A stretch of 64,000 nt of DNA, taken from assembly GCA_016206785.1 (NCBI GenBank), contig JACQQV010000021.1, positions 63,509-127,508 of the forward strand, written 5' to 3'. The notes below the pieces were generated by a model. That model saw only the letters and a list, made by a program, of their open reading frames with translations. It was not told the origin of the DNA and made no database searches. Origin of the DNA: Candidatus Omnitrophota bacterium (GTDB lineage Bacteria > Omnitrophota > Gorgyraeia > JACQQV01). The translations under genes and the position numbers were made by a program. Position 1 is the stretch's first letter. Each line of letters opens with the position of its first letter. This document shows positions 7,948-63,997 of this stretch, one piece after another.

Positions 7948-7950
7948 CGA

Positions 7951-8235: not shown

Positions 8236-8278
8236 TGTAAATAACCTCGTTTCATCATAAAAGATTTAGACCGGTTTG

Positions 8279-43505: not shown

Positions 43506-44890
43506 TGGAGCGCTACCTCTTTGAATCCTTCTCTGTTTCTCATCTTAACCCACGCCGTCCCCTTCCCTTCGACCCTGACTCTGGGATCCCCATCGAACGG
43601 GGATTCAATGACAACGTGTCTCAAGAAGCCACGAAGTTCCTCTACCGATCCTTCTTTGAATTGGAAATGTCCTTCCGTATCGCCGACAGAGACGACCTCG
43701 ATCCGTTCTGAACTATACGTGATCAGTTGATAAGGAACATTCGCGAGGATCTTCTGATTCGCATAAGGTGGAATGACGAAGTTCCGGTAGTCATTTGGAT
43801 TCCCGGAGCGCCCGGCCTCGGCCGCCTTGAGAATGTTGTAAGCCTCTCGCGCCGTAGCATAATGGAGCCGGTATCGTTTCCCGTCGTTATACTTTTTCTC
43901 CAACGTCTCATACATCTTCTCGGCCCCCTTCCCTAAAAGGGGTTCATGGTCTCTGGCGATCGCCCCATGGGTAAAAACCTTCACAAAAATCCACTCGGGC
44001 CGACCTTTCACATGGATCGCTGTCCTCATCCAGCGGTCGATCCGTTTTGACGTTGGAAGATCCCAAACGGTTACATCCCCATGGTCATAGCGGAGCCTTC
44101 CTTTCTCAAAGGAAAGGATGCTCGGGCCTTCAAAGATAAGAAGGTCGCCCCACGCTTCACCTTCTGCCTGTACGATTTGACCTTTGTCGTATGATTTGGG
44201 ATGTGACGGATCATCCTTTGCGTAATAGAGACTGTTCGTGAGCGTCGGATTCATCGTCCCCCAGGATGAATGCGTAAAATCTGCGTAGCAGCCGGTCTTG
44301 CGCAGAATCTCCAGTTCATTGTTGACTCCACAAAACTGCCCCTCTCTCGAATTGTCCAGCGCCCACATCCCATGGATAAAGGCATACATCGTCTTGGGTT
44401 TTTCTTCTGCCGTAATAAATGCCCCCGTCACCTGTGAAAGTTTGATCCGTCTTTGAAGTTCACGGGTCACCGTGAGAGGTGTGTCGTTGTTGTGATGGAG
44501 ATGGAGTTCCACCTCCCCATACCCCTCATAAGCAAGTTTTGCAAGTCTCGTGAGATTTCGAAGGGTCACATCCCCCCTGTCATCGGCCCAATACCAGAAA
44601 AAGGTGTGTTGCGGTTTCCTTCCATCCGCATCCCGGTGGCGGTCTGCGAGGCGTCGGTACATCTTCTCCCATCGTTCAACAGCAGCGATGTGGTGTGGTT
44701 CAAAGTGGTCGACGAAAACGAAAACAATGTCTACGGGTTGCTTTGAGGAAAAGGAGGGATCTTTCTGAAAAATTTGTTGAGCCAACAAACCGGGAAGCCA
44801 CGGCTTTGTCCGATGAACATAGAAGCCGATCCCGCTTGCGGCCAAAAGAAATAAAACGACAATCAGTTTTCGTAACGTACTCTTACGCAT
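43499..44890 (-). CDS. conserved hypothetical protein with N-terminal TM anchor (unassigned family)
   Basis: ORF track. The TM segment is LIVVLFLLAASGIGFY, followed by a His-rich motif VFVFVDHFEPHH...HLHHNN. The likely start is MRKSTLRKL at about 44890. The track ORF extends to 45010. Confidence 0.45.
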   Translation of the reverse strand: MRKSTLRKLIVVLFLLAASGIGFYVHRTKPWLPGLLAQQIFQKDPSFSSKQPVDIVFVFVDHFEPHHIAAVERWEKMYRRLADRHRDADGRKPQHTFFWYWADDRGDVTLRNLTRLAKLAYEGYGEVELHLHHNNDTPLTVTRELQRRIKLSQVTGAFITAEEKPKTMYAFIHGMWALDNSREGQFCGVNNELEILRKTGCYADFTHSSWGTMNPTLTNSLYYAKDDPSHPKSYDKGQIVQAEGEAWGDLLIFEGPSILSFEKGRLRYDHGDVTVWDLPTSKRIDRWMRTAIHVKGRPEWIFVKVFTHGAIARDHEPLLGKGAEKMYETLEKKYNDGKRYRLHYATAREAYNILKAAEAGRSGNPNDYRNFVIPPYANQKILANVPYQLITYSSERIEVVSVGDTEGHFQFKEGSVEELRGFLRHVVIESPFDGDPRVRVEGKGTAWVKMRNREGFKEVALQW

Positions 44891-48784: not shown

Positions 48785-51515
48785 GTTGAGAGACCTTTTC
48801 TGCCAAGGAAAGAATGCGATTCACAAAATGTGTCAGGGAAAATTCATTTTGGACCCGCTCATAAGCCTTCTCCACCATTTTCTGGACTTCGGAGCCTCCT
48901 CCCATGACGCGAAGGATCGCTTCGCGAAGAGCCACCGGATCTCCTGGAGGAACCACAATCCCAGTAACCTCCGGCGTGACATGGTCAAGTACCCCCGGAA
49001 CTTCACTCACAATGACTGGCTTTTTGAGAGCCATCGCGTTTAAGTAGCTCTGTTGGCCTGTGCTTTGAAGGAGACCTCGCGTGAGAGGAAGAACCACCAT
49101 CCGGGCCCCCGCCATGAGTTTCCGAAATCCGAGGGGATCTGTTGTTTGAGCAGTCACATGAGGAGGAAGGGGTTTTCCATTCCAGAAAGCCACCTGTTTT
49201 GCAACGATCAGAGTCGGGAACGAAAGGGATCGGACCGCCTCAAGAAGCGTTTCATAATCTCTGGAGGAGTCCCCACCGGCAAAAATATAATTCCCGTTTT
49301 TTCCTTCTACGTCATATCCATCGAGTGACGCATGATGCGGCATAAAAACGAATTTTTCTCTCGGAATTTTGAAATAAGCACTATAGGTGTCGCACTCCTG
49401 CCGCGACCAGACGAGAAATAGTCTTACCGAGCGGGCAATCCATCGGAGGACCATCCCCTTCCACCACTTCCGAAGAGGATTCGTTTCAGATTTCCAAAGA
49501 CAACAGGTCATCAGGTGCGGAATTCTTTTGCCCGGTAAGAGGGACTGAAGTATTGCGAAAAAGCCATCTTCTCTTTCGCATCCTGTAATAAGAACATCAT
49601 ATTTTCGTCTCGCCTTAAGGAGACGAAACGCCAGGGTCCAGTCCCGGAAACCCCAATGGCCCAAGAGACCTCGTTTTTCCTCACTCCTCGGCTTTAAGAG
49701 AGTGGTCTCCTTTTGCCAGTGAGGACTTTGTGGAATGGGATAGGTCGTCAGGATCCGGACGCCGCTACGATTCAGCTGAGGGCGTGTCAATATGTTAGGA
49801 AGAGAATGGGAAATTTCCTTCTTCGCCTCAAACAGCCTTTCAAAAATCGTCATTCCCTTGATCCGGAAGCTCAGAATCCTTTGGCCGGTCTCGCAAATTC
49901 CAATGCGACGATAGGTCCGAAGGGACGTCTCGTTTTGGACATTAATCACGCAGTAGAGATACCGAATTCCTTCCTCAGCGAGTCGATTGCAAAACTCTTC
50001 AAAGGCCTTCAGGGCAATTCCTTTCCCGCGATACTCTGCCTGGGTCATTGCGTCGTAAAAGAAGGCCTCGTTTTCTCTAAGGGGGAATCTTCTCGAATTC
50101 TCCCACACGCACCACTCGTTCGGACTAACCCAGGTCGTATGAATCAGCTTGCCGTTGACAAAGGCTCCGAAACAACGATGCCCCCGCTTCCACCGCACTC
50201 CGAATTTATCAACGTCGTTCGTCTCTTTGAGTCTCGCAATCTCGCTCAGAGTCGCACGGTCCCCAGCGTCGAGCCAGCGGTATTCTATACCACCTCCTAC
50301 AACAGTTCGAACACCCTTTGCCCTGTTGTTTCTGGAATCCATCACAAAGACCTTAAAAAGATCCCTCTGAAACCAACGGCTCTTGGGATTCATTTTCTTA
50401 AGAAAACTCCGAACGGTAGAAGGAAAATGGACGAGCCTTTGTAACCAGGTCAATAACCTCCCCCGGAAGGTCGTCCCCAAGATCAGAACCCTCCCCACCT
50501 CTCGGATACCCTGGGTCCAGTCATACTTGTAGTTCTCCCCCCCACGCAACAGATCCACCTCCCGAATCCCCCGCTTGCAGCAGTCCTCGAGGATATATCC
50601 CATGAGGATTTGAAAAACCCCCGATTGCTTGTAGGCCGGATCGAAGCCGGTCTGATAGGCAAAGAGCCGCCCCTGATACTCAAAACCGTACTGAACAGCA
50701 ACCCGCTTCCCGTTGAGTTCAAGAAAAGAGAGATGGAGCCGACCGCGTCCGGCCAACTCCTGGGCCAGGCGACTGTGGAAGAGACGGTACGCCTCGAAAC
50801 TGAACTTGTCCGCCGACCCAATCGAAATCCTGCGCTTTCCATGGAGCTCCATAAAATTTTGCATGTCTTGCTCAAGGGTGGAGGGGTTCCCGGCTTTTAC
50901 AAAAGTTGTTTGGAATTCCCTGTTCAGCTTCGTCCGGCGCCTTCGGATATTTTTCTGCATGCTGTCCTTCAGAGAGGCGACGTAAGTATCCCATCCCTGC
51001 CCGTCCAGTTGGACATAGGGGGCAACCTCCCCCAAGCGCTTCTCAATCAGGGCCCTCCCACTCCCCTTGAGCTCTTCCCCGAGACGTCGACAGAAAGGAT
51101 CCTCTACATCGATATCGCGCAACATCATCGTGTCCCACTCATGTTGAATAGAGACGAGGAAATCCTTCACCTTCTGGATAACCGCCTCTTCATAGCCGGG
51201 AGCCACAAGGCCAGTGAGATGATCAGGGCAAACCAGGCCACCTGTTCCGACAAAACGAAGTTCCCTTACCGAAAGGATCTTTTTCATCTTACGTCGCGTC
51301 AGATAGAATGGAACGCCGCCGACCAGTTGATCTTTATCATAGGCAAGTAAAAGATAAAGCTGATTTCCCCTGCCGAAGACGGACCACCAACTCCCGAGCC
51401 ACTCAACCGTCAAAAAGATGTTGGGACGCGGCGCGGCATCGAGGAGGGCATTCCACTCCCCCCGCACCTGATAAAATTCCCGCAGTGTCTGAATCACCCG
51501 TACAGAAAGAGACAT
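48774..51515 (-). CDS. 913-aa fusion: FemAB/BioF2-like GNAT domain plus a second GNAT acetyltransferase plus a GT4-like glycosyltransferase domain
   Basis: The N-terminal 350 aa are FemAB-like (…LTVEWLGSWWSVFG…FLELNGKRVAVQYGFEYQGRLFAYQTGFDP…). The middle region is GNAT (…AEYRGKGIALKAFEEFCNRLAEEGIRYLYCVIN…). The C-terminal region is GT-B-like (…KPVIVSEVPGVLDHVTPEVTGIVV…). Confidence 0.7.
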   Translation of the reverse strand: MSLSVRVIQTLREFYQVRGEWNALLDAAPRPNIFLTVEWLGSWWSVFGRGNQLYLLLAYDKDQLVGGVPFYLTRRKMKKILSVRELRFVGTGGLVCPDHLTGLVAPGYEEAVIQKVKDFLVSIQHEWDTMMLRDIDVEDPFCRRLGEELKGSGRALIEKRLGEVAPYVQLDGQGWDTYVASLKDSMQKNIRRRRTKLNREFQTTFVKAGNPSTLEQDMQNFMELHGKRRISIGSADKFSFEAYRLFHSRLAQELAGRGRLHLSFLELNGKRVAVQYGFEYQGRLFAYQTGFDPAYKQSGVFQILMGYILEDCCKRGIREVDLLRGGENYKYDWTQGIREVGRVLILGTTFRGRLLTWLQRLVHFPSTVRSFLKKMNPKSRWFQRDLFKVFVMDSRNNRAKGVRTVVGGGIEYRWLDAGDRATLSEIARLKETNDVDKFGVRWKRGHRCFGAFVNGKLIHTTWVSPNEWCVWENSRRFPLRENEAFFYDAMTQAEYRGKGIALKAFEEFCNRLAEEGIRYLYCVINVQNETSLRTYRRIGICETGQRILSFRIKGMTIFERLFEAKKEISHSLPNILTRPQLNRSGVRILTTYPIPQSPHWQKETTLLKPRSEEKRGLLGHWGFRDWTLAFRLLKARRKYDVLITGCEREDGFFAILQSLLPGKRIPHLMTCCLWKSETNPLRKWWKGMVLRWIARSVRLFLVWSRQECDTYSAYFKIPREKFVFMPHHASLDGYDVEGKNGNYIFAGGDSSRDYETLLEAVRSLSFPTLIVAKQVAFWNGKPLPPHVTAQTTDPLGFRKLMAGARMVVLPLTRGLLQSTGQQSYLNAMALKKPVIVSEVPGVLDHVTPEVTGIVVPPGDPVALREAILRVMGGGSEVQKMVEKAYERVQNEFSLTHFVNRILSLAEKVSQHEK

Positions 51516-53665
51516 TATCGATACCCCAACAGCCGGCAGGCCAATGTGCTGAACGGCTCTTCGTAGGCCGGCACCCGTTTCAGAATAAATGGTTCTTGAA
51601 AGTCGCGATTGACCCCGTAAAGGGTGGTGCAGGCGGCTGTGAATCCATTTGCCTTAAGGGCGCCAATGGCCCTTTCATCGAAATCTCCCGCTTCGCCGTT
51701 CGGATAGGCAAAAAGGGTTACCCTTTGCCCCGTCATCGCTTCAATCCGTTCCTTCGACCCGACAATCTCCTTCTCCAACATCCCGTTACTCATTTTGGAG
51801 AGGATCGGATGAGAGATGGTGTGGGCACCAAAAGAGATCCCTGCTTGCGACATCACTTTCGCCTCCTCCCACGTCATCATCCTCGCACCGTCTTGGTGAA
51901 AAAACGTGGGCGTCATCTGCGCCAGTTTCTCGACGAGGGTATTCCTCTCTGGATCCGGCAACCGCTTCAGCCATTCTTTCAACGCCTTGAGGGTGGTTAT
52001 TTTTTCCCAGACGGTTTTTGTCGGAAAACGTCTTTCGATGCCGTTTCCGCCAAGGGTCAATGTCTCTCCCTCGAAACGGGAAACCAACGAGGTGACACAA
52101 TCTGTCCAGAGCGGCCTCTGGTCATCCATCGCGCCCGTTGTCAGAAAGACGGTCGCCGGAAGTTTCATCGCGGAAAGGGCCGGAAAGGCGACCGAGAATG
52201 TGTTTCGGATGCCGTCGTCAAACGTCAGACTGACCGTCCGGCGAGGAACTCTTTTGCCTCGGGAGAGGGTATCCACCACCTCTCCAAGAGGGAGTACCGT
52301 AAAGTGACGCTTTAAAAAAGCGAGCTGCCGTTCGAAATGTGTAACGCTAATCCCGGTAAAATAGGGAACCTCTTCTTTCAAAACACGGTGATACATGAGG
52401 ATCGAAAATGCGTTCTCTCTTCCGAGGCGCCAAGGAACCGCACGGGTCCCCGACCAGGCCACATCCGCCGCTCTTTCCAAGAGGGTCCGTCGAAGGCGCC
52501 GTTTGACCTGTGCAAGTAGCTTTCCCTTCGCACGGAGACGCAACCGCTCATAAGTTTCAAGAGCCTCTCCTGCCACACGCGCCATTGAAAAATGCCGTAA
52601 GATCCTCTCCCGCCCCGATTCCGACATCTTTTTTCTCTTCTCATGATTTGTAATAAGTTCTTTCATCGCTTCTGCGAGCGCCGAGGGGTCGGAAGGAGGG
52701 ATTAGAATTCCATCCTGGCCGTTTCTAACCAATTCCGGAATACCCCCTACCTCCGTCGCAATGACCGCCTTTCCAAGGGCCATCGCTTCTGCGATGGCAA
52801 GCCCAAGTCCCTCTCCCAAAGAGGGAAGGACAACGAGATCCATCGCCGCCATGACCGGTTTTACGTCCGACTGCCACGGAATAAAACGGATCTTCCCGCC
52901 CAGCGATAACGTTTCCGCAAGGTTCCGAATCCGTTCTTCATAAGCCCCTTTTCCGTTCGCTCCGACCAGAAAAAACGAAACATTTTTCTCCCTTTCCAGA
53001 ACCTTCTGTGCGGCGTTAAGAAACTGATCATGCCCCTTCCCTTCCACAAACCGTGCGATCATCCCTACCGCGCACTCCCCTTCCGGCAAGGCGAGTTTTT
53101 GCCGCTCATCGCTTCTCACCGACGGATTCATCTCAAATTCGCGAAGGTCGATTCCGTCGTAGAGGGTCTTAACGCTCCGGGATCCCTTCAAGGAGTCGAG
53201 CCGGTAAACATTCCTTACCGCATTCGAGACACACAAATATTCATCGACCCAACGGCTCGCCCAGCGGGAAAGATTTCCCATAAACATTGTCTCGTTTCCG
53301 CGCGCATGCGAAACCAAAGGAATGCCTAAGCATTTCGCAGCCGCTGCGCCGGATAAGCCAGAGGCGACACCCGTATTCAAATGGACGATTTCTACTTTTT
53401 CCTTAAGACAGAGCGCGGTAAGAAAAAGGATCTCGGCGAATAAACGGGGGATAATAAAGAGTTTTCCCCTTCCAAAGAATTTCGGAATCGTGAAAATAGA
53501 TACCCCCAATTCACGGAGTTTCTCAACATTCGGGCCTGTCTTTCGCACGGCAACCGTCGGAGTCACCCCATGATGCTGTAACACCTTGGCCAGCCGGTAG
53601 AGCGAAGCGGAGGATCCGCCGGAACCTGAACCCGCTTCGATATAGAGCACATGGAGGGCACTCAT
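51515..53665 (-). CDS. 716-aa fusion: GT4 glycosyltransferase plus polysaccharide deacetylase (NodB) domain
   Basis: The N-terminus is GT4 (…LYIEAGSGSGGSSASL…LPSLGEGLGLAIAEAMALGKAVIAT…). The C-terminus is NodB (…ILMYHRV…LTFDDG…). Confidence 0.8.
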   Translation of the reverse strand: MSALHVLYIEAGSGSGGSSASLYRLAKVLQHHGVTPTVAVRKTGPNVEKLRELGVSIFTIPKFFGRGKLFIIPRLFAEILFLTALCLKEKVEIVHLNTGVASGLSGAAAAKCLGIPLVSHARGNETMFMGNLSRWASRWVDEYLCVSNAVRNVYRLDSLKGSRSVKTLYDGIDLREFEMNPSVRSDERQKLALPEGECAVGMIARFVEGKGHDQFLNAAQKVLEREKNVSFFLVGANGKGAYEERIRNLAETLSLGGKIRFIPWQSDVKPVMAAMDLVVLPSLGEGLGLAIAEAMALGKAVIATEVGGIPELVRNGQDGILIPPSDPSALAEAMKELITNHEKRKKMSESGRERILRHFSMARVAGEALETYERLRLRAKGKLLAQVKRRLRRTLLERAADVAWSGTRAVPWRLGRENAFSILMYHRVLKEEVPYFTGISVTHFERQLAFLKRHFTVLPLGEVVDTLSRGKRVPRRTVSLTFDDGIRNTFSVAFPALSAMKLPATVFLTTGAMDDQRPLWTDCVTSLVSRFEGETLTLGGNGIERRFPTKTVWEKITTLKALKEWLKRLPDPERNTLVEKLAQMTPTFFHQDGARMMTWEEAKVMSQAGISFGAHTISHPILSKMSNGMLEKEIVGSKERIEAMTGQRVTLFAYPNGEAGDFDERAIGALKANGFTAACTTLYGVNRDFQEPFILKRVPAYEEPFSTLACRLLGYR

Positions 53666-54609
53666 TCGTCTTTACGCTCCTTCAAAGTTGCTACTGCACA
53701 GACGCCGCTCGCGGCAGTTGCCAGATACGGTTTCACATGTTTGAACAGTTTTACAACTCCTCCATCTGTATCCTCTTCAAAATAGCTCCCCAATGTGGGT
53801 TGGGACCAGACGGCGGCGGCAAAATGTCGCGTCGCACTCCGATACAAACGTTTACGATAGTACTCCTTCGCCAAGAGGTAATGGCGAACGGCCAGCCGTG
53901 TTTTCAAAAGAGGCGTATAGTATTTAAACATCGGGTCTCTCAAGAGTTTTTGAAATATCTTAATCTGTTCACCAAACATATGGATGAGGTTAGATGAGAG
54001 GCTCTGATTGGAAAGACGGTAGGTTGCGAGCGTTTCCCGGAGACCACAAAAGTCATACCTCGCCGCCAATCTCATCCAGAGATCGTAATCATCGGGACCC
54101 TTCAGGCTCTCATCAAAACCACCCACCGCTTTGATGCATTCCAGACGCGCTACCACCGTAAGCGTCGGAATAAAATTCATCTGCAGGAGTTCTTCGAGTG
54201 TCTCGGGATGAACCTTATCTGGCTTATTCCCGAGAAAATGCCCTTCATCGTCTACCACCTGTGCTATTGCATAAAGGAAGCCAAGCGTCGGACGACGTTC
54301 CAGAAATGCTACTTGCCGTTCCAGTTTTTCGGGAAGCCAGGAGTCATCATCATCAAGAAATCCCACATATGTCCCCCGCGCTTCCCCGATACCCCTATTG
54401 CGGGCTGCGGCGACGCCGCGATTGGTCTGGAAAAAGTAGCGTACGGCTCTCCCGAATTTCGCGACCAGATCGGCTGTCCCATCTGTCGAGCCGTCATCCA
54501 CCACAATCAGTTCCCAGTCCTGATAGGTCTGGTCCAAGACGCTTTGAATCGCCCTTGACAGAAGATGGGCCCGGTTATACGTTGGGAGTATCACACTAAC
54601 TTTTGGCAT
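53662..54609 (-). CDS. GT2 glycosyltransferase, 315 aa
   Basis: MPKVSVILPTYNRAHLL…VVDDGSTDGT… (classic GT2 DxD context). Confidence 0.8.
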   Translation of the reverse strand: MPKVSVILPTYNRAHLLSRAIQSVLDQTYQDWELIVVDDGSTDGTADLVAKFGRAVRYFFQTNRGVAAARNRGIGEARGTYVGFLDDDDSWLPEKLERQVAFLERRPTLGFLYAIAQVVDDEGHFLGNKPDKVHPETLEELLQMNFIPTLTVVARLECIKAVGGFDESLKGPDDYDLWMRLAARYDFCGLRETLATYRLSNQSLSSNLIHMFGEQIKIFQKLLRDPMFKYYTPLLKTRLAVRHYLLAKEYYRKRLYRSATRHFAAAVWSQPTLGSYFEEDTDGGVVKLFKHVKPYLATAASGVCAVATLKERKDE

Positions 54610-55768
54610 GGTTCATCCTTAAATAACGACCACTCTTTCGTTCTTTCCAGAACTCCTCTTTGACTGAAAATTTGTTCAATAAAGCGGAGAAGAGCACCTT
54701 TAAACGGGATATTTGACACGGGTGTCCAAAATAGTACTTCAGATAAAACGTAGCCCCGGGGCGGTCTTCGATGAGAATGCGCAACATCGCCTCGCGTGTC
54801 CGCCGGGCTTCCTTCGGCCAATGTTTAAGTAATTTTAAATAATCGCTTTCGGCATCCCGTATCAAATTGGCCAGGCGGAAGAGAGTATTGGAAACGTATG
54901 TTTCCTCCTCATTTTCCAACTTCTTTTCCTGACGGCGTATGAATTCCTGGGTCGCCTGCATGTCTCCTTTGGCGAACGCCTCCACAAGATTGTATTGATC
55001 ATGGGCAAGAAGGCTCCGCCTCGTAAGAGTTCTCTTTTCCTCCTCATTCTTTAGAAAGGAGGAACGATAGGCAAGGGCCTCATCGGTCACGCGTAGCCCC
55101 AGGCGGAGATACCTCCAAAGATCCCGCTGACGCAGTTGTATGAAATTGGATTGTCCATGTCGTCGGTGCGCAACGGTCCAAGCACGCAGACGGACCATTT
55201 GTGTCCTTGAAGAGAGACGGAGCCACAACGAATAATCGGACATCCCGGAGTGCTCTTCAGGCCAGCCTCCCGCCTCTTCCAGCGCTTTCCTTCGGAAAAG
55301 AGCGGTGGCAGGGGCGCAGCCCAATCCGTGCATCGGGTAAAATTCCCACGGATCAAAGGTCTCAACGCCCACATCAGAAAGGTCGTATCGCACATCGCTA
55401 CCGTCTTGAAAAGGCCGCATCTGCGCAACGGCGGCAGAAACTTCGGGATGCCTTTCAAGGGTTTCGTTCAATAACGCCAAATGTTCCGGATGCCAAAGGT
55501 CATCCTGGTCCAAAAATGCCACACGCTCTGCGCGGGTGTGGGAAAGCCCAAAATTTCTTGAAGCGGTTCCGCCCTTCTTGATCGCGGAATCCTTCACAAG
55601 AAAACGGACGCCTGGATAGCTTTTAATTAATTCCGGAGAACCGTCCGTGGAGCCATCATCGACCACAATGACCTCTTCGGGCTTAAGGCGCTGCGCAAAA
55701 ACCGAATCGAGAGTCTCGCGAATCCATTTTGCCCCGTTGTAAAGCGGAATAATGACAGCGATCGCCAT
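54596..55768 (-). CDS. GT2 glycosyltransferase, 390 aa
   Basis: MAIAVIIPLYNGAKWI…VVDDGSTDGS…FLDQDDLW…. Confidence 0.8.
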   Translation of the reverse strand: MAIAVIIPLYNGAKWIRETLDSVFAQRLKPEEVIVVDDGSTDGSPELIKSYPGVRFLVKDSAIKKGGTASRNFGLSHTRAERVAFLDQDDLWHPEHLALLNETLERHPEVSAAVAQMRPFQDGSDVRYDLSDVGVETFDPWEFYPMHGLGCAPATALFRRKALEEAGGWPEEHSGMSDYSLWLRLSSRTQMVRLRAWTVAHRRHGQSNFIQLRQRDLWRYLRLGLRVTDEALAYRSSFLKNEEEKRTLTRRSLLAHDQYNLVEAFAKGDMQATQEFIRRQEKKLENEEETYVSNTLFRLANLIRDAESDYLKLLKHWPKEARRTREAMLRILIEDRPGATFYLKYYFGHPCQISRLKVLFSALLNKFSVKEEFWKERKSGRYLRMNHAKS

Positions 55769-56721
55769 TACACTCCCTCTCTGTTCAAGTCAACCAAGTC
55801 TTCTATCGTTTCTTTCGATAGATACTGTTTCAACTGCCGCTCGGCAAACGCCTCTATCGCCGGGCCACGCTCCGGAAAGTGAGCGGCCGCATGGGAAGTG
55901 ATTAAAAGTCTCGGTGTCTTCCAGATGGAGTCGCTCTCCGAAACCGGTTCAGGAACGATCACGTCAAGGCCTGCCCCTCCCAGATGGCTTCCTCGTAGGA
56001 CTTTCACAAGCGCTTCTGTTTGTAGCGTCTCTCCCCGACCCACATTCACTAAAACCGCATGTTTAGGGAGTGACTGAAGCATCCCTTCGTCAAAGAGCGC
56101 TTCCGTGCTCGTATTTCGAGGGAGCGCAAGGAAACATAAATCTGCCTCTTTAAGATGCGTGGGCCAACTCTCAGCGTTGTAGCGGGCCTCGCAGAAAGGG
56201 GCCGCCAGTCCTTCTCCGCTACGCGAAGCCCCTATGACAAAAAGCCCCCGACTCTTTAAAATCTTTGCGATCTCCCGACCAATGTGGCTCATGCCGACCA
56301 CCATCGCCGTCTTGGGCGAAGGAAGTGGGGCAAGTTCCAAGTGCCATTTGGGTTGACTAGGACGTAGAAACTCATCTACCTTTCTTGTCACAAGACTATC
56401 GGAAAGTTTCAGTGCAAACCGGGCGATCACATCAGAAAAAAGGGTGCACCGTGACAGGATCACCTGTTTATCCCGAAGCATCTGAAGGGGAAGCCGATCT
56501 GTGCCGCCTGCGGTCGATTGGACCCATTTCAACCGGCGTACATGCGGCATCACCTGTCTTAAATAACGATGCCCGAAAATGACATCTGCCTCCTCTGCCG
56601 CCCGGATCGCCTCCTCCTCGGAATGTGCAACCGCGACATGGCTCTTTTGAGTGATCGCCTTCAATCTCGAGACGTGAGCCTCGCTCGGCTCATGGGTGCT
56701 ATACATTAAAAGAATATTCAT
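55768..56721 (-). CDS. D-isomer-specific 2-hydroxyacid dehydrogenase (NAD-binding)
   Basis: GMSHIGREIAKIL…GxGxxG-like NAD site and the catalytic R/E/H region (…VNVGRGETL…ITSHAA…). The likely start is MNILLMYS at about 56721. The track ORF starts at 56805. Confidence 0.75.
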   Translation of the reverse strand: MNILLMYSTHEPSEAHVSRLKAITQKSHVAVAHSEEEAIRAAEEADVIFGHRYLRQVMPHVRRLKWVQSTAGGTDRLPLQMLRDKQVILSRCTLFSDVIARFALKLSDSLVTRKVDEFLRPSQPKWHLELAPLPSPKTAMVVGMSHIGREIAKILKSRGLFVIGASRSGEGLAAPFCEARYNAESWPTHLKEADLCFLALPRNTSTEALFDEGMLQSLPKHAVLVNVGRGETLQTEALVKVLRGSHLGGAGLDVIVPEPVSESDSIWKTPRLLITSHAAAHFPERGPAIEAFAERQLKQYLSKETIEDLVDLNREGV

Positions 56722-57496
56722 GATGCAACATCTCCCGGATCGCTTCACAAAAACGCTCATGGTCCGCCGCTTTCGCTTCGGGTCCTCGCCGGCTACTCGC
56801 TTCAAAGGCGACGTGTATCGCCCGAACTTCGGCCACCAAGTCCCGATCTTTACATTCTTTTTTGAAGGTGCGTCGCATGAAGCTTAACCCGCACCCAAGG
56901 CGGGTTAACTCATGCAGAATATGCGTAAACCGAATCGGATATCCTCCCCCTAAAATGGTGACACCCCCAAATCCATACACTCTCCCTGGAAGCGCTTGGA
57001 AAATGCGCTCGACAGTCCCATCCAGAACGTATTCCCAAATCGATTTTCCCCCTTTTGCGATCATGAGGTCATTCAGTCCGATATAGACATACTCCCAGCC
57101 GAGTTTCGCAAGATCCCGACTCTCCGCCTCCAGTTGCGGCGTTTCAATTTGAACAAGGGTCTTTGCCCGACCTTTGACGATTTTAAGAAAGGACTCCACG
57201 TCCCGACAATTCCTTGCCATCGGAAGCATGAGGATCCTTGCGCCGTGGTCCAGTGCCGTTTCCACCTCTGTCGCGGTATGTGCCCCCGGACAATTGATCC
57301 GCACCGTCACAGGAATGTGCAGATGACTCGCGAGATTGGAGACATCCTCCGGCGAATCGCCGTTGATTTCAACGTCATACCCCTGCTGACGGCTCCCCTT
57401 TCCCTTCGTCTCCCAGTCCACAATGACGCTGTCAAGACCAGCGCGCTCTGCTTCTTGTGCGAGTGTCAAATCGGTTGTAAATAAAAATAATTTCAT
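56699..57496 (-). CDS. HpcH/HpaI aldolase / citrate-lyase-beta-like family protein, 265 aa
   Basis: TIM-barrel aldolase pattern (…VRINCPGAHTATEVETALDHGARILMLPMA…IETPQ…). This assignment comes from overall pattern rather than a single diagnostic motif. Confidence 0.6.
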   Translation of the reverse strand: MKLFLFTTDLTLAQEAERAGLDSVIVDWETKGKGSRQQGYDVEINGDSPEDVSNLASHLHIPVTVRINCPGAHTATEVETALDHGARILMLPMARNCRDVESFLKIVKGRAKTLVQIETPQLEAESRDLAKLGWEYVYIGLNDLMIAKGGKSIWEYVLDGTVERIFQALPGRVYGFGGVTILGGGYPIRFTHILHELTRLGCGLSFMRRTFKKECKDRDLVAEVRAIHVAFEASSRRGPEAKAADHERFCEAIREMLHHEYSFNV

Positions 57497-60400
57497 CTAT
57501 ACCTCTATAGACTTTACAAGAAGACGCTTCCCAGAGGGTTCCCGCGGGATCTCCGATACCGCTTTGGCGCCTACCGTGAAGTCTTTTCCGAAAAAACTTT
57601 GAAGATCGTGCTCGAGAGAGGCTCCAATCTGCGGTGTCCACTTTGAAGTCGGAACATAGAGAAATTGAAGCTCAGAGTCACCCCGCCGTACCGCCTGATA
57701 CTCCACGAGATGCGGCGTATAGTCATGCTGAATTTGCAGAAGGTGGTCAATCATACTCGAGAAAACGATGCGGCCGGAACGGGTTGTGATCCGATCCGAA
57801 GTCCTTCCTTCAATGTGTGCAATGGTCGGCCAGCTCCGTCCGCACCGACATGGTTCAGAGACGCGTACAAGGTCTCCTGTGTCATAGCGGATAAAAGGCA
57901 TTGCCTCGTTGGTGAGATCGGTGATGACGATGTGCCCCACCTCGCCCGAGTCTGCCGGAGAACCGTCCTCCCGCAGAATTTCACAGACGTACCATTCTGG
58001 ATTAAGATGCATCAGATCCGGAACGTCCGGGCAGGAGAACCCAACGGTTCCAAATTCCAAACTCGCATACTGATTGATCGTACCTGTTCCAAAAGCCTGT
58101 TCGATGAGCCTTCGCTGTGCTGTACTCATCGTTTCTGCCGTTGCGATCACACATCGGGGACGCCGCACCACTTTTAATCCCTGACGCTCAATCTCCTCTG
58201 CCATCACCAAAAGGGCCGATGTATAGCCTGCCAGAACATAAGAAACAGGTGCCCTTGTGATGCGTGCCAGATGAAAAGGCACAGTACGGGCCGAGAGATC
58301 AAAGACAGAGATGAAACGGGGTGGCTCCTGACCCAGCATCACCTTGAACCATTCCCCCACGCGCCGCTCACTTTTATGAAAAGGTGCGCCAATCCAAACA
58401 AGTCGATCACCTGGCTGGATTCCCGCCCACCGGTCAGCGAGACGACGGCATGCAATCCGCATCGGCATCCCCGCAATATCCCGATAGAATCGAAACGCCT
58501 CCCCTGTGGAACCCGAAGTAAATGCGAGGTGAAATCTTGATCTGTCCACCTTCTCTGCCACGCATCCCTGAGGAAAAACACGGGCAAGATCCCGTTTCGA
58601 AATAATCGGCAACCTTTTTAAGAGTTCAAACCCCTCTAAATTTTCTCCGCGACAGACGCTGCCATTCCACCGCTCTCGATAAAAAGGAACCTGGGTGACC
58701 GCATGGTGAATCAAGTGAGAAATCCGGGCAGCCACTCGTTTCTGTCGTTCTGTATCGTTTTCCCATTGCGAGCGGTCTAAGGCGATAAATTCTCTCTCTG
58801 TCCGAGCGTGTATCTCAGGACTCGTCTTCCACGGTTGACTGACAATATGCCGTGCCTCAAACCGACGCTGCCTTAACAACTGTACCGCTAGCGGAACCGC
58901 GGCCAACACCGTCTGGCGCATCGGCCGCGCACGTTCCTCAAGTGATTTCATGAGGGTGGAAGGTGTTTCATGAAGGAGAGTACCCATATGTTCGACGAGT
59001 TGGTCCGCTGTCAATCCTTCAAGCGGCAGGACGTGATGGCTTTGACCCATCGGTCTCATGACTCCCATCATTTTCATGGTGTAGTAGTCGCTGACACTGA
59101 CGGCGATTGCTGGTCTTGCGGTCGAGAGGGTAAAAAGGACACCGTGATACCGGGTTCCGATGACCAGATCCATTCTCCCTAAAATCCCCTTGATGACAGA
59201 AGGCGTGTGATCCCCTCGAACAATGAAAGAGCGTTCCCGATGCCGCATTCGGCCGATGATCCGTTTCGCCTCAACCCGGTCATCCTTGGCCGGATCCTGA
59301 TTCACGAACATCGGCACAAAAACGATAGCGGCATTGAAACGTTCCACTGCCTGATCGAATGCTTCTGCAAAGAGATCCCGCAAACGATCTTCGCTGAAGG
59401 AGCTGGTGGCCACGAAACGGGCCGTCACACCGATCCAAGGAGTGTGAGAGTGGGGGAAGAGGTCTTCCTGACGGAGGGCCGCTTCTACCGCCTCGGCAGG
59501 AACCGCTTCAAGCGCCCAAGCGTCGTCGGCGACGTCGAGAATCTTTGGACAGACGACGCCGATCTGTCGAAGCACCTCCCGGGAGATCCCATGATCGCGA
59601 AGGGTGATGACCTCTGCTCGGTTTAACGCAACGCGCGCAAACCACCGGTCAAACGGCCGTGTGAGGGGTCCAACCGTCTGACCGGAGAGGACCGACCGCT
59701 TTCCGAAAATCCGACCTGCTAAAATGACCAGCGCCCGGTGGTATAGACCCTCTGCCGCATAGAGGCTGTTCATCGCCCCAGCCCCCACCATGTAAAGCAA
59801 GTCTGCCTGCTGGATCGCCTTGAGGATGCGATCGGCTTGTGAGGGTAAGCACCATGTCTTGCCAAACGTCTTAAGGAAAAAAGCATTCAACAAGATCCAT
59901 CCCCCATAAGTGATCGCTTGGACGGTTGAGCGAATTTCCGAGATTCGAAATCGTCGGTGAGACGGAAGGACGAGATTCGCTATCCTGCTCAGACGAGTGG
60001 CAATGCCCCCCGCTCCCCTCGCCACCGCCTCTACGATAGGATAACCTGACTTTAGTAATCCTGTGAGGGAAAGAAGGACATCTGTCGGTTGATTGAGATC
60101 CGCCTGACGCACCTCTTCCGGTGTCAACTCCCGATGGATAAGAGTGACCGTACGGATCGGCCCAAACTCCTTTGCAAAGGCGCTCCGCGTGACGTTGTAC
60201 ATCGCATCATCCCCTCGGTTCCCTCGATGAGAAGGAGTCACGAAAAGAACCGTCGGTATTTTCTGAGAGACAGAGGCCGATGGCCTCCTGCCATGCATCA
60301 CTGTCCAACGTCCAACGGTCCTTTTTATCCTGAGGGGTCTGATGAGACTTAACACGGCATTCCGGGCTGTATGTTTGGCGCGCCGGACAAATCCGCCGGG

Positions 60401-61537
60401 AACGCTCTGGGTGCGATGGGGCGGGTCACTGACCGTCATAAAGAGGCCGCTAAAGTTAAATCCATTCTCCGCCAGGAATTCCGCCTGGCGATCGAGGACG
60501 GCAATGCGGCGCCTCAACCAATAGTGATAAAAAGGATCGACCTTTTCAGTGCGGAGAAGATGCTTTCCGAAAGAACGGCGCAGAGTTTCTGTCATCGGTC
60601 CTCTTCCTTCTTGCGCGTAGGCGCTGAGTTGAACTCCGAAGGAAAAAGGTAACACGACCAGAGGAGATCGCCACGTCGCCCTCGCGCGCCATCGCCCAGG
60701 AAGGAGATTCCATTCTAAAAGCCTGGAAGTCCACTCCACCGGAGAGACCCCCTCCAGTGATGCAAAAACAACCGCACCGCCATCACCCGTCGTCAGGAAT
60801 GCACTCTTCTCCCGAGAAACAGTCACCCATCCCTGGTCTCTGATAAATTGATCTACTGTAAAGATCGCCTCTCCCAAAACCTCTCCGACCCGAGCCAGGA
60901 GTACCTTTAAACAACTCATACGATCGGGGGAGTTTTTGAACCAGTCGCGCCGCAACAAAGCGACCTCTTCGATGAAGTGCGGGGTAGTGATTTTTCCGGT
61001 GACTGTTTGAAGCACTTTGAGACAAGACACCAGGTTATTCAGGAAAGCCAGGACGGCTCGGATGGAGAGTTCCGTCTCGCCCAACAGGCGGGCGTACCTT
61101 AACGCATGAAACCCGAGTTGGTCTACCGTATGAATCACGGACAATATCGCCGCCTCTTTCTCTGTATATACCTCCTGCATCAACACCTTCCCGTGAATAG
61201 GGCGAAGGCGTGGAAGAGGAAACGCTTCCTGGAGATGATGAAAAACGCTCTTTGGAACAATGCGAGGCTCCCCCCGAAATGCGACGTGACCGGCACCGAA
61301 AAGGGGCCGGGCTGAGAATTCCTCCGGGCGGCTCTTTGTCAACCGGTCCTCGACCACGCAGACCAGATCGAGATCGGAAATCCCCAGGATAGTCGGCTCG
61401 CCCTGTTGATAGACCGCCAAGAGCTCCGGTCGCTTCGCTAAGTGGCTCACAAAAACCTCACGGGCTTTCTCATAATCTTCCGGAGCAGCCAATGAGGGTT
61501 CCCCTATCCACCGGATTTGATCAAGATATTTTTTCAT
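57497..61537 (-). CDS. about 1350-aa tri-domain fusion: N-terminal nucleotidyltransferase-like, central polysaccharide pyruvyl transferase (CsaB/WcaK-like), C-terminal CapK/PaaK-like adenylate-forming enzyme (F390-synthetase family)
   Basis: The N-terminus is …ILGISDLDLVCVVED… (the GxSDxDL nucleotidyltransferase motif). The middle is …VLFVTPSHRGNRGDDAMYNVTRS…RDHGISREVL… (PS_pyruv_trans-like). The C-terminus is …HLAFTSGSTGEAFRF…YDTGDLV…GRTSDRI… (phenylacetate-CoA-ligase-like). The likely start is MKKYLDQ at about 61537. The track ORF starts at 61567. Confidence 0.75.
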   Translation of the reverse strand: MKKYLDQIRWIGEPSLAAPEDYEKAREVFVSHLAKRPELLAVYQQGEPTILGISDLDLVCVVEDRLTKSRPEEFSARPLFGAGHVAFRGEPRIVPKSVFHHLQEAFPLPRLRPIHGKVLMQEVYTEKEAAILSVIHTVDQLGFHALRYARLLGETELSIRAVLAFLNNLVSCLKVLQTVTGKITTPHFIEEVALLRRDWFKNSPDRMSCLKVLLARVGEVLGEAIFTVDQFIRDQGWVTVSREKSAFLTTGDGGAVVFASLEGVSPVEWTSRLLEWNLLPGRWRARATWRSPLVVLPFSFGVQLSAYAQEGRGPMTETLRRSFGKHLLRTEKVDPFYHYWLRRRIAVLDRQAEFLAENGFNFSGLFMTVSDPPHRTQSVPGGFVRRAKHTARNAVLSLIRPLRIKRTVGRWTVMHGRRPSASVSQKIPTVLFVTPSHRGNRGDDAMYNVTRSAFAKEFGPIRTVTLIHRELTPEEVRQADLNQPTDVLLSLTGLLKSGYPIVEAVARGAGGIATRLSRIANLVLPSHRRFRISEIRSTVQAITYGGWILLNAFFLKTFGKTWCLPSQADRILKAIQQADLLYMVGAGAMNSLYAAEGLYHRALVILAGRIFGKRSVLSGQTVGPLTRPFDRWFARVALNRAEVITLRDHGISREVLRQIGVVCPKILDVADDAWALEAVPAEAVEAALRQEDLFPHSHTPWIGVTARFVATSSFSEDRLRDLFAEAFDQAVERFNAAIVFVPMFVNQDPAKDDRVEAKRIIGRMRHRERSFIVRGDHTPSVIKGILGRMDLVIGTRYHGVLFTLSTARPAIAVSVSDYYTMKMMGVMRPMGQSHHVLPLEGLTADQLVEHMGTLLHETPSTLMKSLEERARPMRQTVLAAVPLAVQLLRQRRFEARHIVSQPWKTSPEIHARTEREFIALDRSQWENDTERQKRVAARISHLIHHAVTQVPFYRERWNGSVCRGENLEGFELLKRLPIISKRDLARVFPQGCVAEKVDRSRFHLAFTSGSTGEAFRFYRDIAGMPMRIACRRLADRWAGIQPGDRLVWIGAPFHKSERRVGEWFKVMLGQEPPRFISVFDLSARTVPFHLARITRAPVSYVLAGYTSALLVMAEEIERQGLKVVRRPRCVIATAETMSTAQRRLIEQAFGTGTINQYASLEFGTVGFSCPDVPDLMHLNPEWYVCEILREDGSPADSGEVGHIVITDLTNEAMPFIRYDTGDLVRVSEPCRCGRSWPTIAHIEGRTSDRITTRSGRIVFSSMIDHLLQIQHDYTPHLVEYQAVRRGDSELQFLYVPTSKWTPQIGASLEHDLQSFFGKDFTVGAKAVSEIPREPSGKRLLVKSIEV

Positions 61538-62441
61538 TAAATCTCCTAAACGGACGCCCGATCCCATACACCCACCGCTTTAAAAGTGGCGATACGATCG
61601 CTGTGTCGTATATCAAGTAAGCGGTGTTGACAATGGGAGAACGCTCCACTTTCTGATAGGCCTGCGGAGTCGTATTCGAGAGTTGGAGCATGTCGTGTGT
61701 TTCACCCCAGAGTATCTGCAATCCAATCGACCGGAATTTTCTGATCGTCCGCTCTCCCCCGTGGTTGGGCTGCATGGGACGCCTGGAATCTTTTCGTAAT
61801 GCCCCGTTGACAATTAAGATCCCATTTTCAGTTAAGGAGCCCCGAAGTTCTTTCATCGTCGCGATCGGATCCTCCACATGCTGGAGGACGTGAAAACAGG
61901 TAATCATATCAAACTTGTTCTTGGGAAGTGCGTTTTGCTTTAAGTCAAGAGATTCCGCTGAAAGCCCCCGCCGTTCAAAACGCCATTTGGCAAAATCCAA
62001 CATGCGACTCGAGATATCGGCGACCGTTGTTGCAATTCCCTCTCGGGCAAAAAAGATCGCTCCGGATCCCGTTCCAGCCCCATAGTCAAGATAGTGACGC
62101 ACGCCTAAACGCTTTGCCAGATCCAAGGCGTAGAGGTAAAGGAGGGGACTACTGTTTTCAGTTCTCATGGCGCTATTATGCATGACAAAGAAAATATGAC
62201 TGAATGACTCATCGTAGAACTTCGTTCGAGCGAGCGCGTCGTCCTGGCGCTTTTCTTCCCACTCTTTCGCAAACGCTTCTGTGCCGTTGTAAAAAAGTTT
62301 TTCTACTTCTGGCCGAGGAAGTTTCGAATACTCCTCTAGTTCGTCCAAAAAGTTTGTCACCACATCTTTACGCGGATTAAGACAAATCCCCTTAACCCAC
62401 TGCTGACGATAGACGGTGACATCAATAGAATTTCCCATCAC
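61521..62441 (-). CDS. class I SAM-dependent methyltransferase, 306 aa
   Basis: …HYLDYGAGTGSGAIFFAREGIATTVADIS… (motif I) and …FDMITCFHVLQHVEDP… (post-I/motif II). Confidence 0.75.
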   Translation of the reverse strand: MMGNSIDVTVYRQQWVKGICLNPRKDVVTNFLDELEEYSKLPRPEVEKLFYNGTEAFAKEWEEKRQDDALARTKFYDESFSHIFFVMHNSAMRTENSSPLLYLYALDLAKRLGVRHYLDYGAGTGSGAIFFAREGIATTVADISSRMLDFAKWRFERRGLSAESLDLKQNALPKNKFDMITCFHVLQHVEDPIATMKELRGSLTENGILIVNGALRKDSRRPMQPNHGGERTIRKFRSIGLQILWGETHDMLQLSNTTPQAYQKVERSPIVNTAYLIYDTAIVSPLLKRWVYGIGRPFRRFNEKIS

Positions 62442-63997
62442 GCCATCTTCTTCTGAAGCACCTTTTCGTAGAGGGCTTCGATCTTTTCTTTTGTTCTCTG
62501 GATATCAAAATGATCCTGCGCTTTCTTCTGCGCCGCCTCTCCCATCTTTCGGCGCTCTTTTTCTCCCCTTAAGAGGGAAAGGAGAGCGTTTGCGAATGCG
62601 TTGGGATCGCCAGGAGTCACCAAAAGTCCTGTGACCCCGTCTTCAACAAGTTCCGGAATCGCCCCTACCCGGGTCGAGACAACTGGGATTGCATGGGCCA
62701 TCGCTTCAAGACAGACGAGTGAAAAGCCCTCCGGCATAAGAGAGGTCTGGGCTAAAAGATCAAAGGCTGGATAAAGAGTTTCGGGATGTTCCACCCAGCC
62801 GGTAAACTGGATATTGCCTGAGAGGCCCTGTTCGGAAACCAGACCCTTGAGATGAGCAAGGTAATTGGAGGGGGCCTCACATTCATCCCCGGCAATAATC
62901 GCCCTCGCGTCTGGATAGACCTTTACAACCTCTGCCATTGCCTGAATAAATTCATGCTGACCCTTCAAAGGCATCAACCGACTCACTACACCCATGGTGG
63001 GTGCTCCATTTAAAATCCCGAGTCTTTTACGAGTTTCCTCCCGATGTAAAGAGGAAGGAGACGTGCCTTTCACATCAAGGCCATTCGGGACATAATGGAG
63101 TTTCTCGGATAAAACGCCTTGGCCCTCACAGATCCTTTTCGAGGAGTGACTGATGACCACGAGCGCCTTCAAGAATTGAACCAAGAACAACTCAGGATTT
63201 GTCAGCGGTCTATTGGCGCGCAAATGAGAGACGATGGGAATTCCTAAAAGACGGGCCGCAAAGACCGCTACGAACGGCGAGCGGGGACTGTTGTTTAGAT
63301 GGATGAGGTCCGGCTTAATCGCCCGAAACTCTCGAATGAGCCGATAAAAAAGAGGAAGGTAAAATTCGAAGAGGTTTCGAAGAAATCCTCTCCCTGTCGC
63401 CTCCGGCCGAAGTCGAACAGAATGAACAGGGATCCCCATCTCAAGCATCTCATCGGTCGATTTCCCTGATTGATGCACAATGACAACCGGATCCCAACGG
63501 CTTCGATTCAGAACTCTTAGAAGGCGAAGGAGGGAAACGGCCGAGCCGCCGCTCCCAGACCCCGCATCAAGATATAAGACACGGTATTTCATATTTCCAT
63601 TCGACGGACGGGTCTTGCGCACGCGTCGTTCATAGAGGTAATTCTTAATCGCATGCACTGCACGCCGTGCCATCGAACGCACAAACGGCATCGGATCATC
63701 CCAAGCGAAGATCCCGAAGACGTTTGTCCCCCAGAGAGAGCCCAACCACTGCCTCCATGAAAGCAGGCCCTGCCGATGGTAGGCGCGAAAGGCATCGCAG
63801 TCCTGTTCGAAAAACAGAAGTTTCTTGCGATAGGTTCTTGCGTGTTGTTCCTCTACACGCCCTCCCAGCATTTCCCGATAGGCAAGATATGGCGCATCAA
63901 TGCCGCTCGCCACGACCAGCGCCAACGAGATAGCACATCGGGGGTTCACCTCGATCAATTTGAAACGATTGTCCCGTGGATCCTTTTTAAATTCCAC
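62438..63997 (-). CDS. GT4 glycosyltransferase whose N-terminal 120 aa look like the C-terminal part of an ATP-grasp domain; the gene probably continues beyond the window end
   Basis: …FKLIEVNPRCAISLALVVASGIDAPYLAYREMLG… (ATP-grasp C-terminal-like) followed by a GT4 module (…VLYLDAGSGSGGSAVSLLRL…MPEGFSLVCLEAMAHAIPVVST…). The ORF is open to within 3 nt of the window edge. Confidence 0.7.
   Translation of the reverse strand: MEFKKDPRDNRFKLIEVNPRCAISLALVVASGIDAPYLAYREMLGGRVEEQHARTYRKKLLFFEQDCDAFRAYHRQGLLSWRQWLGSLWGTNVFGIFAWDDPMPFVRSMARRAVHAIKNYLYERRVRKTRPSNGNMKYRVLYLDAGSGSGGSAVSLLRLLRVLNRSRWDPVVIVHQSGKSTDEMLEMGIPVHSVRLRPEATGRGFLRNLFEFYLPLFYRLIREFRAIKPDLIHLNNSPRSPFVAVFAARLLGIPIVSHLRANRPLTNPELFLVQFLKALVVISHSSKRICEGQGVLSEKLHYVPNGLDVKGTSPSSLHREETRKRLGILNGAPTMGVVSRLMPLKGQHEFIQAMAEVVKVYPDARAIIAGDECEAPSNYLAHLKGLVSEQGLSGNIQFTGWVEHPETLYPAFDLLAQTSLMPEGFSLVCLEAMAHAIPVVSTRVGAIPELVEDGVTGLLVTPGDPNAFANALLSLLRGEKERRKMGEAAQKKAQDHFDIQRTKEKIEALYEKVLQKKMA

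Follow-up and report, generated by a model that had tools for sequence, protein, structure and literature searches.

CapK-like ligases, which occur in glycan loci across bacteria and archaea, have just received their first genetic assignment (VpsH, 2026). In Vibrio cholerae, glycine amidation of GulNAcA on lipid-linked Vibrio polysaccharide (VPS) requires VpsH, a CapK/PaaK-like protein whose deletion traps a glycine-free lipid-linked disaccharide (PMC13463779). Phospho-substituents are put on glycans by nucleotidyltransferase (NTase)-fold enzymes, LicD, fukutin, and MNN4, from nucleoside diphosphate-linked (NDP-X) donors (PMC2794190). Here, we analyze a gene that joins an NTase-like domain (the N-domain), a polysaccharide pyruvyl transferase domain, and a CapK-like ligase domain in one polypeptide. 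It lies in a 64,000-nucleotide stretch, called the window here, of contig JACQQV010000021.1 (positions 63,509 to 127,508) from a Candidatus Omnitrophota bacterium, within a long co-directional exopolysaccharide (EPS) operon. Each domain belongs to a known superfamily, and the triple architecture was found nowhere else that we searched. With confidence that is about evenly balanced, we read the gene as encoding an enzyme that tailors, in several steps, the repeat unit of an XrtA-like (PEP-CTERM) exopolysaccharide and that was produced by stepwise fusion.

Three enzyme domains in one reading frame

The region 57497..61567 of the reverse strand is one unbroken open reading frame (ORF) of 1,356 codons, a length far beyond chance expectation. 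An AGGAG sequence stands 5 nucleotides (nt) 5' of the ATG at 61535-61537, which is codon M11 of the ORF and, from this sequence context, most likely the true start, so that the true product most likely has 1,346 amino acids (aa). ORF codons 1 to 10 overlap the 3' end of the upstream methyltransferase gene. The 1,346-aa product is identical to GenBank MBI4436490.1 from a Candidatus Omnitrophota metagenome-assembled genome (MAG), where it is named only "polysaccharide pyruvyl transferase family protein." A preliminary description of this DNA had reported three domains in a polypeptide of about 1,350 aa, and both their content and their order are borne out by Pfam, NCBIfam, and fold matches: the N-domain is followed by the pyruvyl transferase and then by the ligase. 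Catalytic residues, which that description had singled out for checking, are in place, since the motifs are intact in all three domains upon inspection. No transmembrane-like segment was detected in the fused protein (maximum Kyte-Doolittle value over 19 residues, 1.5), and we predict that it is cytoplasmic.

The pyruvyl transferase is the sole Pfam domain recognized in the fused protein (PS_pyruv_trans, PF04230; 95.7 bits against a cutoff of 25.3, aa 530-826), and it reaches 98.8 bits when scanned alone. The signature motifs of this family are an N-terminal G-N-x-G-D and a C-terminal R-x-H; the corresponding GNRGDD (449) and TRYH (805) are identical in the orthologues of two related loci, L001 and L002, described below. 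An insert of ~90 aa follows the N-terminal motif, and therefore the PF04230 match begins at profile position 59. The NCBIfam models for CsaB (83.6 against a cutoff of 213) and WcaK (47.5 against 399 and 37.5 against 727) match below their equivalog cutoffs. WcaK is the best annotated tblastn match, with ~25% identity over 62% of the domain, and a sequence search of PDB with the domain gave no match. The domain qualifies for PF04230, and phosphoenolpyruvate (PEP)-dependent ketal-pyruvyl transfer to a sugar is its predicted reaction.

The C-terminal domain qualifies, on sequence and motif matches, for the ANL/PaaK-like superfamily of predicted adenylate-forming enzymes. It aligns over its full length with the PaaK structures PDB 4r1l and 2y27 (E = 1e-22 to 1e-24). 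The adenylation motifs TSGSTG (1017), YASLE (1167), YDTGD (1228), and GRTSD (1254) are kept in orthologues, and so is the C-terminal SGK (1345-1347), which holds the catalytic lysine. At aa ~935-1300 it is matched by the NCBIfam models of PaaK, the DVU_1553 family, FlxY, and F390-synthetase-related proteins, none of which comes near its cutoff; for the PaaK equivalogs TIGR02155 and NF041878, the scores are 81 against 646 and 104 against 700. Among annotated relatives, the best is the "capsule biosynthesis protein CapK" of a Deinococcus (32% identity, E = 2e-41); a homologue encoded within a glycosyltransferase cluster of Methanohalobium scores similarly (E = 7e-42). Since such CapK relatives outscore true PaaK enzymes (~26% identity, E ~1e-16), the label "CapK-like" chosen in the preliminary description is a fair one. 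That description had also linked the domain to the stand-alone ligases of exosortase-A loci, a connection that finds no backing: at E ≤ 0.01 the protein matches 10 NCBIfam families, and the exosortase-A-associated acyl-CoA ligase model of the XrtA system, which we take to be TIGR03098, is not one of them.

The N-domain (~415 aa) has no Pfam match even at E = 10, its profile found no match among solved PDB chains by sequence search, and no curated family (NTP_transf_2, Polbeta, LicD, and others) matched it. An AlphaFold model from five sequences is of moderate quality (pLDDT 65, pTM 0.66) and is best at residues 1-240. Five AadA chains hold the top Foldseek ranks, weakly (E 0.03-0.05), and AadA is the best fold match by two methods. 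Residues G52, S54, D55, and D57, numbered from M11, are invariant in all 61 aligned diverse family members and constitute the Pol-beta NTase signature with its two predicted metal-binding aspartates. At the site of the third carboxylate of AadA (E87 in AadA), 42 of the 61 members have His and the window's clade has Gly-Glu, while an aspartate or glutamate at position 139, present in 87% of members, might stand in for it. Three of the 61 members show weak Pfam matches to Polbeta. The N-domain has the motif and the fold of a Pol-beta-type NTase, yet it lies outside every Pfam and NCBIfam family tested.

When 1.84 billion cluster representatives were searched with a profile, the family yielded 722 clusters at E ≤ 1e-3 and 205 at E ≤ 1e-10, and most members stand alone as proteins of 320-430 aa. 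In GTDB species genomes, a scan with a degenerate DNA motif located at least 120 loci with the family, and hmmsearch confirmed a member at every one of the 120 listed; among these matches are Bacteroidota, Patescibacteria, Planctomycetota, Eremiobacterota, Woesearchaeota, Methanosarcinales, and others. Another search of GTDB genomes, with a conserved pattern from the N-domain alignment, gave 64 pattern matches and no true relative. The 125 same-strand ORFs adjacent to the 120 listed loci include 22 GT4 glycosyltransferases, about 16 S-adenosylmethionine (SAM) methyltransferases, and 9 GINT1_N proteins, along with 5-9 sulfotransferases, GT9 enzymes, and flippases. Elsewhere the N-domain is fused to a methyltransferase (P0006), a GNAT-GNAT pair (P0072), or a GT4 domain (P0079), and in P0095 and P0144 to a second, recognizable NTP_transf_2 domain. 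From its size, motif, spread, and neighbors, we therefore conclude that the N-domain represents an NTase-fold family that is widespread in glycan loci and has no Pfam model.

We also considered the N-domain with a methyltransferase as a WbdD-like chain terminator of ABC-transporter pathways, an idea that was dropped as too poorly supported: the 25 commonest neighbor families at the 120 loci listed include no ABC transporter family. A distant tandem version of the N-domain, 25% identical, is found in P0005 (779 aa; positions 781..3120 of locus L007), which weakly matches the N-terminal domain of class I adenylate cyclase and has a 418-aa ABC ATPase encoded directly downstream.

Stepwise fusion of three adjacent genes

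Close relatives are confined to four lineages, and the gene order of the module is kept across lineages that are only ~52% identical. In L002 to L005, which represent one protein found in four samples, all genes are separate: methyltransferase (314 aa), N-domain (431 aa), pyruvyl transferase (494 aa), and ligase (452 aa), followed by two GT2 glycosyltransferases; the ligase of L002 is 81% identical to that of the window. L001 has a single 920-aa protein for the N-domain and pyruvyl transferase, and over these two domains it shares 82% identity with the window. The L001 ligase is a separate 452-aa protein whose gene overlaps the 920-aa gene by 14 nt and is followed by aldolase-like, dehydrogenase, and GT2 genes. 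L006 likewise has the N-domain and pyruvyl transferase fused. Thus, the window gene arose by stepwise fusion of three adjacent genes, from three to two to one, and is the end state of adjacent-gene joining, not a new protein class.

The two junctions differ in how widely they are found. At junction 1, between the N-domain and the pyruvyl transferase, the stop codon of the N-domain gene was lost and the ancestral pyruvyl transferase ATG was kept as M424, which aligns with the start of the separate L002 gene; this fused state is present in three independent assemblies. Junction 2, between the pyruvyl transferase and the ligase, is in frame in this assembly only. At its position, L001 and L002 have a stop codon and a separate start codon, whereas in the window the pyruvyl transferase tail, the stop codon, and the spacer are missing, and the window sequence RHIV-SQPWK aligns with the L002 ligase N terminus MEMM-SQPWK. 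Three protein-database searches (word-prefiltered, with the full-length query in the first only) found no second triple fusion, and a pattern-based scan of JGI metagenomes with the full protein recovered only the known L002 contig. This rarity agrees with the earlier view that the architecture was undescribed.

Junction 2 adjoins a mosaic tract of the gene (Table 1). By sliding identity, amino-acid identity to L001, otherwise the closest relative, drops here from ~90% to 38-65%, while identity to the distant L002 climbs to 90-97% in amino acids and 81-94% in nucleotides. Nucleotide identity to L001 is 49-77% in the 5' two-thirds of the ligase region, with a blastn gap at 59043..58579; in the last (3') third, L001 is again closer than L002. 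The region of aa 840-930 resembles neither. Natural recombination may have made the fusion; the same pattern would be expected from a MAG that is a chimera of strains.

An assembly error at junction 2, which the preliminary description had raised as a possible objection, is thus a rival to be weighed. On this account, the three-way fusion is an artefact of a chimeric or misassembled contig, and the organism really has a 920-aa protein and a ligase of ~450 aa, as L001 does. The single assembly, the separate overlapping genes of the closest relative, L001, and the position of the junction at the left edge of a ~1.2-kb switch from L001 to L002, which strain mixing in a metagenome could yield, all speak for it. 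However, with just 81-94% identity to L002, the tract is not a plain copy from an L002 population, aa 840-930 are unlike either relative, and mismatches cluster at a single codon position, the pattern expected of selected coding sequence. The mosaic is equally well explained by natural recombination. A one-base frameshift, the other part of that objection, is rejected on three grounds: a shorter, diverged linker, an uninterrupted frame, and the lack of an alternative start codon, with no in-frame ATG, GTG, or TTG between L897 and V945. We consider an artefact rather unlikely, and we retain stepwise fusion through both junctions as our reading of the gene.

The surrounding exopolysaccharide locus

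The locus is an exosortase/PEP-CTERM EPS locus of XrtA-like type, in agreement with its earlier assignment to an exosortase-type EPS system. Its exosortase matches XrtA best (197.9 bits against a cutoff of 208), and EpsI, a priming sugar transferase, three PEP-CTERM proteins, a tetratricopeptide repeat (TPR) protein, a histidine kinase and sigma-54 response regulator resembling the PrsK/PrsR pair, a Wzy-like polymerase, and many glycosyltransferases are encoded with it. The methyltransferase, fused, aldolase-like, dehydrogenase, and GT2 genes overlap or abut (Table 1).

Table 1. Positions of the fused gene, its parts, and other features in the window
Feature	Position	Strand	Remarks
Fused gene	57497..61537	-	1346 aa from likely start M11; mechanical ORF reaches 61567
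N-domain, AadA/ANT-like nucleotidyltransferase fold + helical bundle	60299..61537	-	ORF aa 11-423; glycan-locus family unmodelled by Pfam
Polysaccharide pyruvyl transferase domain	58847..60298	-	ORF aa 424-907; starts at retained ancestral start codon M424
CapK/PaaK-like adenylate-forming ligase domain (predicted)	57497..58846	-	ORF aa 908-1356 + stop codon
Junction 2, in-frame pyruvyl transferase-ligase join	58793..58879	-	ORF aa ~897-925; this assembly only
Mosaic tract	57860..59043	-	nearer distant L002 lineage than otherwise closest L001, by amino-acid and nucleotide identity
Class I SAM methyltransferase	61521..62441	-	Pfam Methyltransf_11/12/23/25; 17-nt overlap with fused gene start
Aldolase/citrate-lyase (HpcH/HpaI)-like protein	56699..57496	-	265 aa; begins directly after fused gene's stop codon
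D-isomer-specific 2-hydroxyacid dehydrogenase	55768..56721	-	~317 aa; 2-Hacid_dh_C 116.5 bits against cutoff 25.1
Two GT2 glycosyltransferases	53662..55768	-	Pfam Glycos_transf_2; directly downstream, same operon
FemAB-like GNAT + second GNAT + GT4	48774..51515	-	913 aa; fusion in same operon
GNAT + PF14907 NTP_transf_5 protein	10231..12126	+	631 aa; second, unrelated NTase-type protein ("uncharacterised nucleotidyltransferase")
GT4 glycosyltransferase	62438..63997	-	~140-aa N-terminal extension with weak ATP-grasp (ATPgrasp_Ter) match

The SAM methyltransferase is the conserved upstream partner of the module, with counterparts of 79% identity in L001 and 74% in L002 to L004. Methyltransferases are recurrent neighbors of the N-domain in general, and the P0006 fusion joins the two. 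The preliminary description had left this gene out of its unit, which instead comprised the fused gene, the aldolase-like gene, and the dehydrogenase gene as a self-contained pathway. The last two are real neighbors, the dehydrogenase assignment being solid and the aldolase match sub-threshold. However, they do not form a conserved unit with the fused gene. L001 has counterparts of both (88% identical for the aldolase-like gene and 84% for the dehydrogenase), whereas L002 to L005 have neither in at least 3.4 kb after the ligase, GT2 genes coming directly next; GT2 genes also follow the module in L001. Since both genes are absent from L002 to L005 while the module and methyltransferase persist, they are accessories of one sub-lineage and not part of the conserved core.

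The 265-aa aldolase-like protein matches HpcH_HpaI at 19.3 bits against a cutoff of 25, in its N-terminal half only, and has no NCBIfam match. Across 97% of its length it shares 30% identity with an "aldolase/citrate lyase family protein" annotated by PGAP, and its single-sequence AlphaFold2 (AF2) model (pLDDT 42) is unusable. A homologue lies at 9001..9822 of the Pseudohalocynthiibacter plasmid pRR4-35_2 (L129), between asnB and a PEP-using NeuB-like synthase, within a polysaccharide locus of nonulosonic-acid type, which points to an aldolase/citrate-lyase subfamily dedicated to glycan pathways. NCBIfam models for D-2-hydroxyacid dehydrogenase and glyoxylate reductase match the dehydrogenase below their cutoffs. 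Its mechanical ORF (55768..56805, reverse strand) begins with a TTG at 56805 and overlaps the aldolase-like gene by 107 nt; by the match to L001, the true start is probably the ATG at 56721.

Gene fusion seems to be a general tendency of the locus, or of the genome. In addition to the 913-aa protein of Table 1, the operon encodes GT4-GT4 (771 aa, 44883..47198), GT4-polysaccharide deacetylase (716 aa, 51515..53665), and PcRGLX-like-GH123 (1,589 aa, 37615..42384) proteins, all on the reverse strand. The GNAT-GNAT pair of the 913-aa protein is the same as that fused to an N-domain family member in P0072 (963 aa). Three ORFs of the EPS locus, at 43499..45010, 36605..37618, and 28143..29015 on the reverse strand (503, 337, and 290 aa), have no Pfam or NCBIfam match at E ≤ 1e-5. 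The ORF of the GT4 gene at the far end starts 3 nt from the window edge, so this gene may extend past the window. Elsewhere in the window lie three consecutive radical-SAM ORFs on the reverse strand (1845..2930, 4040..5119, and 5116..6087), the first two separated by an unannotated 309-aa ORF, and a MiaB-like UPF0004/radical-SAM gene (17547..18863, reverse strand).

Proposed function and comparison with described systems

Domain families, intact motifs, conserved synteny, and the fusion series are observed, and we propose the following scheme on that basis. With PEP as donor, the pyruvyl transferase would attach a pyruvate ketal to a sugar in the undecaprenyl-pyrophosphate-linked repeat unit. 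The CapK-like domain would adenylate, with ATP, a carboxylate on the same intermediate, either of a uronic acid or of the new pyruvyl group, and join the activated carboxylate to an amine or alcohol as an amide or ester, with VpsH as the analogy. The N-domain, with its two invariant aspartates and a Mg2+-NTP or NDP-X donor, would nucleotidylylate a sugar hydroxyl or add a phospho-substituent, and it may act in concert with the adjacent methyltransferase. Fusion would provide these activities in equal amounts and near one another on a single substrate. A small 2-hydroxy- or 2-oxo-acid co-substrate probably comes from the aldolase-like enzyme and the dehydrogenase.

The pathway envisaged by the preliminary description gives these last two enzymes a larger role: they would make a 2-oxo- or 2-hydroxy-acid, the ligase would adenylate this free acid, and the product would end up on the polysaccharide as an acyl or ketal-like group, all within one self-contained unit. 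An aldol product that an HpcH-type enzyme makes from pyruvate, once reduced at C2, would be one such acid. The five genes are contiguous, overlapping or abutting, the two genes also follow the ligase in L001, the aldolase-like homologue sits in a polysaccharide locus beside a PEP-using synthase, and PaaK-type enzymes normally activate free small acids. However, the module of L002 to L005 keeps its ligase (81% identical) with neither gene nearby, and therefore the ligase does not depend on them. The aldolase assignment is also weak, with a sub-threshold score and an unusable structure model, and the scheme assigns no acyltransferase step; we think it unlikely that the unit works in this way. 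Equally improbable to us is that the ligase is a true acyl-CoA ligase feeding the GNAT/FemAB-like acyltransferases at 48774..51515, uncoupled from the pyruvyl transferase and joined to it by neutral compaction. CoA ligases are the closest solved structures of the domain, the 913-aa protein provides FemAB-like GNAT and GNAT domains fused to GT4, and several other neighboring glycan genes in the operon are fused. This account fits poorly with the PaaK-type equivalog scores, far below cutoff, and with the better scores of CapK-type relatives. Moreover, the sole CapK-like protein with genetic data, VpsH, acts on a lipid-linked glycan carboxylate, and the adjacency of ligase and pyruvyl transferase, with their gene order, persists across lineages of ~52% identity.

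Several observations weigh against our own reading of the gene as a tailoring enzyme. The triple fusion comes from a single MAG, and its second junction borders the mosaic tract. Pyruvyl transferase and CapK-like ligase co-localize in one small clade only, as no such pair was found beside the 120 other N-domain genes listed or on a shared plasmid record, and functional coupling therefore rests on one lineage. Because so many genes of the locus are fused, fusion may reflect general operon compaction instead of functional coupling. The N-domain has no conserved acidic residue at the third-carboxylate position of AadA. Acceptor, donor, and reaction order are all inferred for this clade.

Since the two domains are fused, it is attractive to suppose that the ligase would act on the pyruvyl carboxylate just installed; literature searches on amide-linked pyruvate ketals, and on F390 synthetase with pyruvyl transferase, found nothing. 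We give little credence to the boldest extension of the tailoring scheme, in which the CapK-like domain converts the ketal carboxylate to an amide or ester, yielding a compound substituent, and the N-domain founds a large class of glycan O-nucleotidylyl- or phospho-transferases with partner methyltransferases. If true, the substituent would be one not yet described on any polysaccharide, and the transferase class would comprise at least 722 clusters across bacteria, the candidate phyla radiation (CPR), and archaea.

Overall, what the preliminary description observed is confirmed, and its interpretation is partly supported. The series from three genes to two to one is a natural "Rosetta stone": it argues for joint action of the NTase-fold protein, the pyruvyl transferase, and the CapK-like ligase on a single exopolysaccharide intermediate. 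A second point of interest is the NTase-like family itself, often found beside methyltransferases. The fused protein offers a single-polypeptide system for asking what CapK-like ligases do and whether pyruvyl carboxylates get modified. Its practical impact is limited, as the fusion is restricted to one uncultured lineage and is a modest, lineage-specific curiosity.

Compared with described systems, the N-domain is most like AadA, or ANT(3'')(9), and other aminoglycoside or lincosamide O-nucleotidyltransferases, in which an NTase domain is likewise followed by a helical bundle and which have in common with it the G-S...D-x-D metal-binding signature. AadA-type enzymes move a nucleotidyl group onto a sugar or cyclitol hydroxyl. 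Unlike AadA, the N-domain has an extra, poorly modeled C-terminal region of ~170 aa and a nonconserved third carboxylate, and its context is glycan synthesis, not antibiotic resistance. For that context, LicD, fukutin, and MNN4 are a plausible functional analogy. The pyruvyl transferase domain has in common with WcaK and CsaB the PF04230 match, the motifs, and a polysaccharide locus, whereas its fusion on both sides, to an NTase-like domain and a ligase, sets it apart.

The ligase shares a PaaK-like fold, complete in its adenylation motifs, and a Wzx/Wzy-type polysaccharide locus with VpsH and with the "CapK" proteins of capsule loci, the likeness to VpsH being drawn from its description and genetics; these proteins stand alone, whereas the window ligase is the C-terminal domain of a 1,346-aa protein. 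PaaK itself (4r1l, 2y27) aligns in full, yet the window locus has no phenylacetate catabolic context. In Roseobacter litoralis, a protein annotated "glycosyltransferase" (WP_187431085.1, 738 aa; 6131..8347 of the pROLI127 locus, L131) carries a CapK-like ligase as its C-terminal ~430 aa, and that locus also has a VPLPA-CTERM sorting-domain protein and sulfate-activation genes. Its ligase is 29% identical to that of the window at 99% coverage. Fusing a CapK-like ligase to a glycan enzyme thus has precedent; the partner there is a glycosyltransferase, whereas in the window the partners are a pyruvyl transferase and an NTase-like domain.

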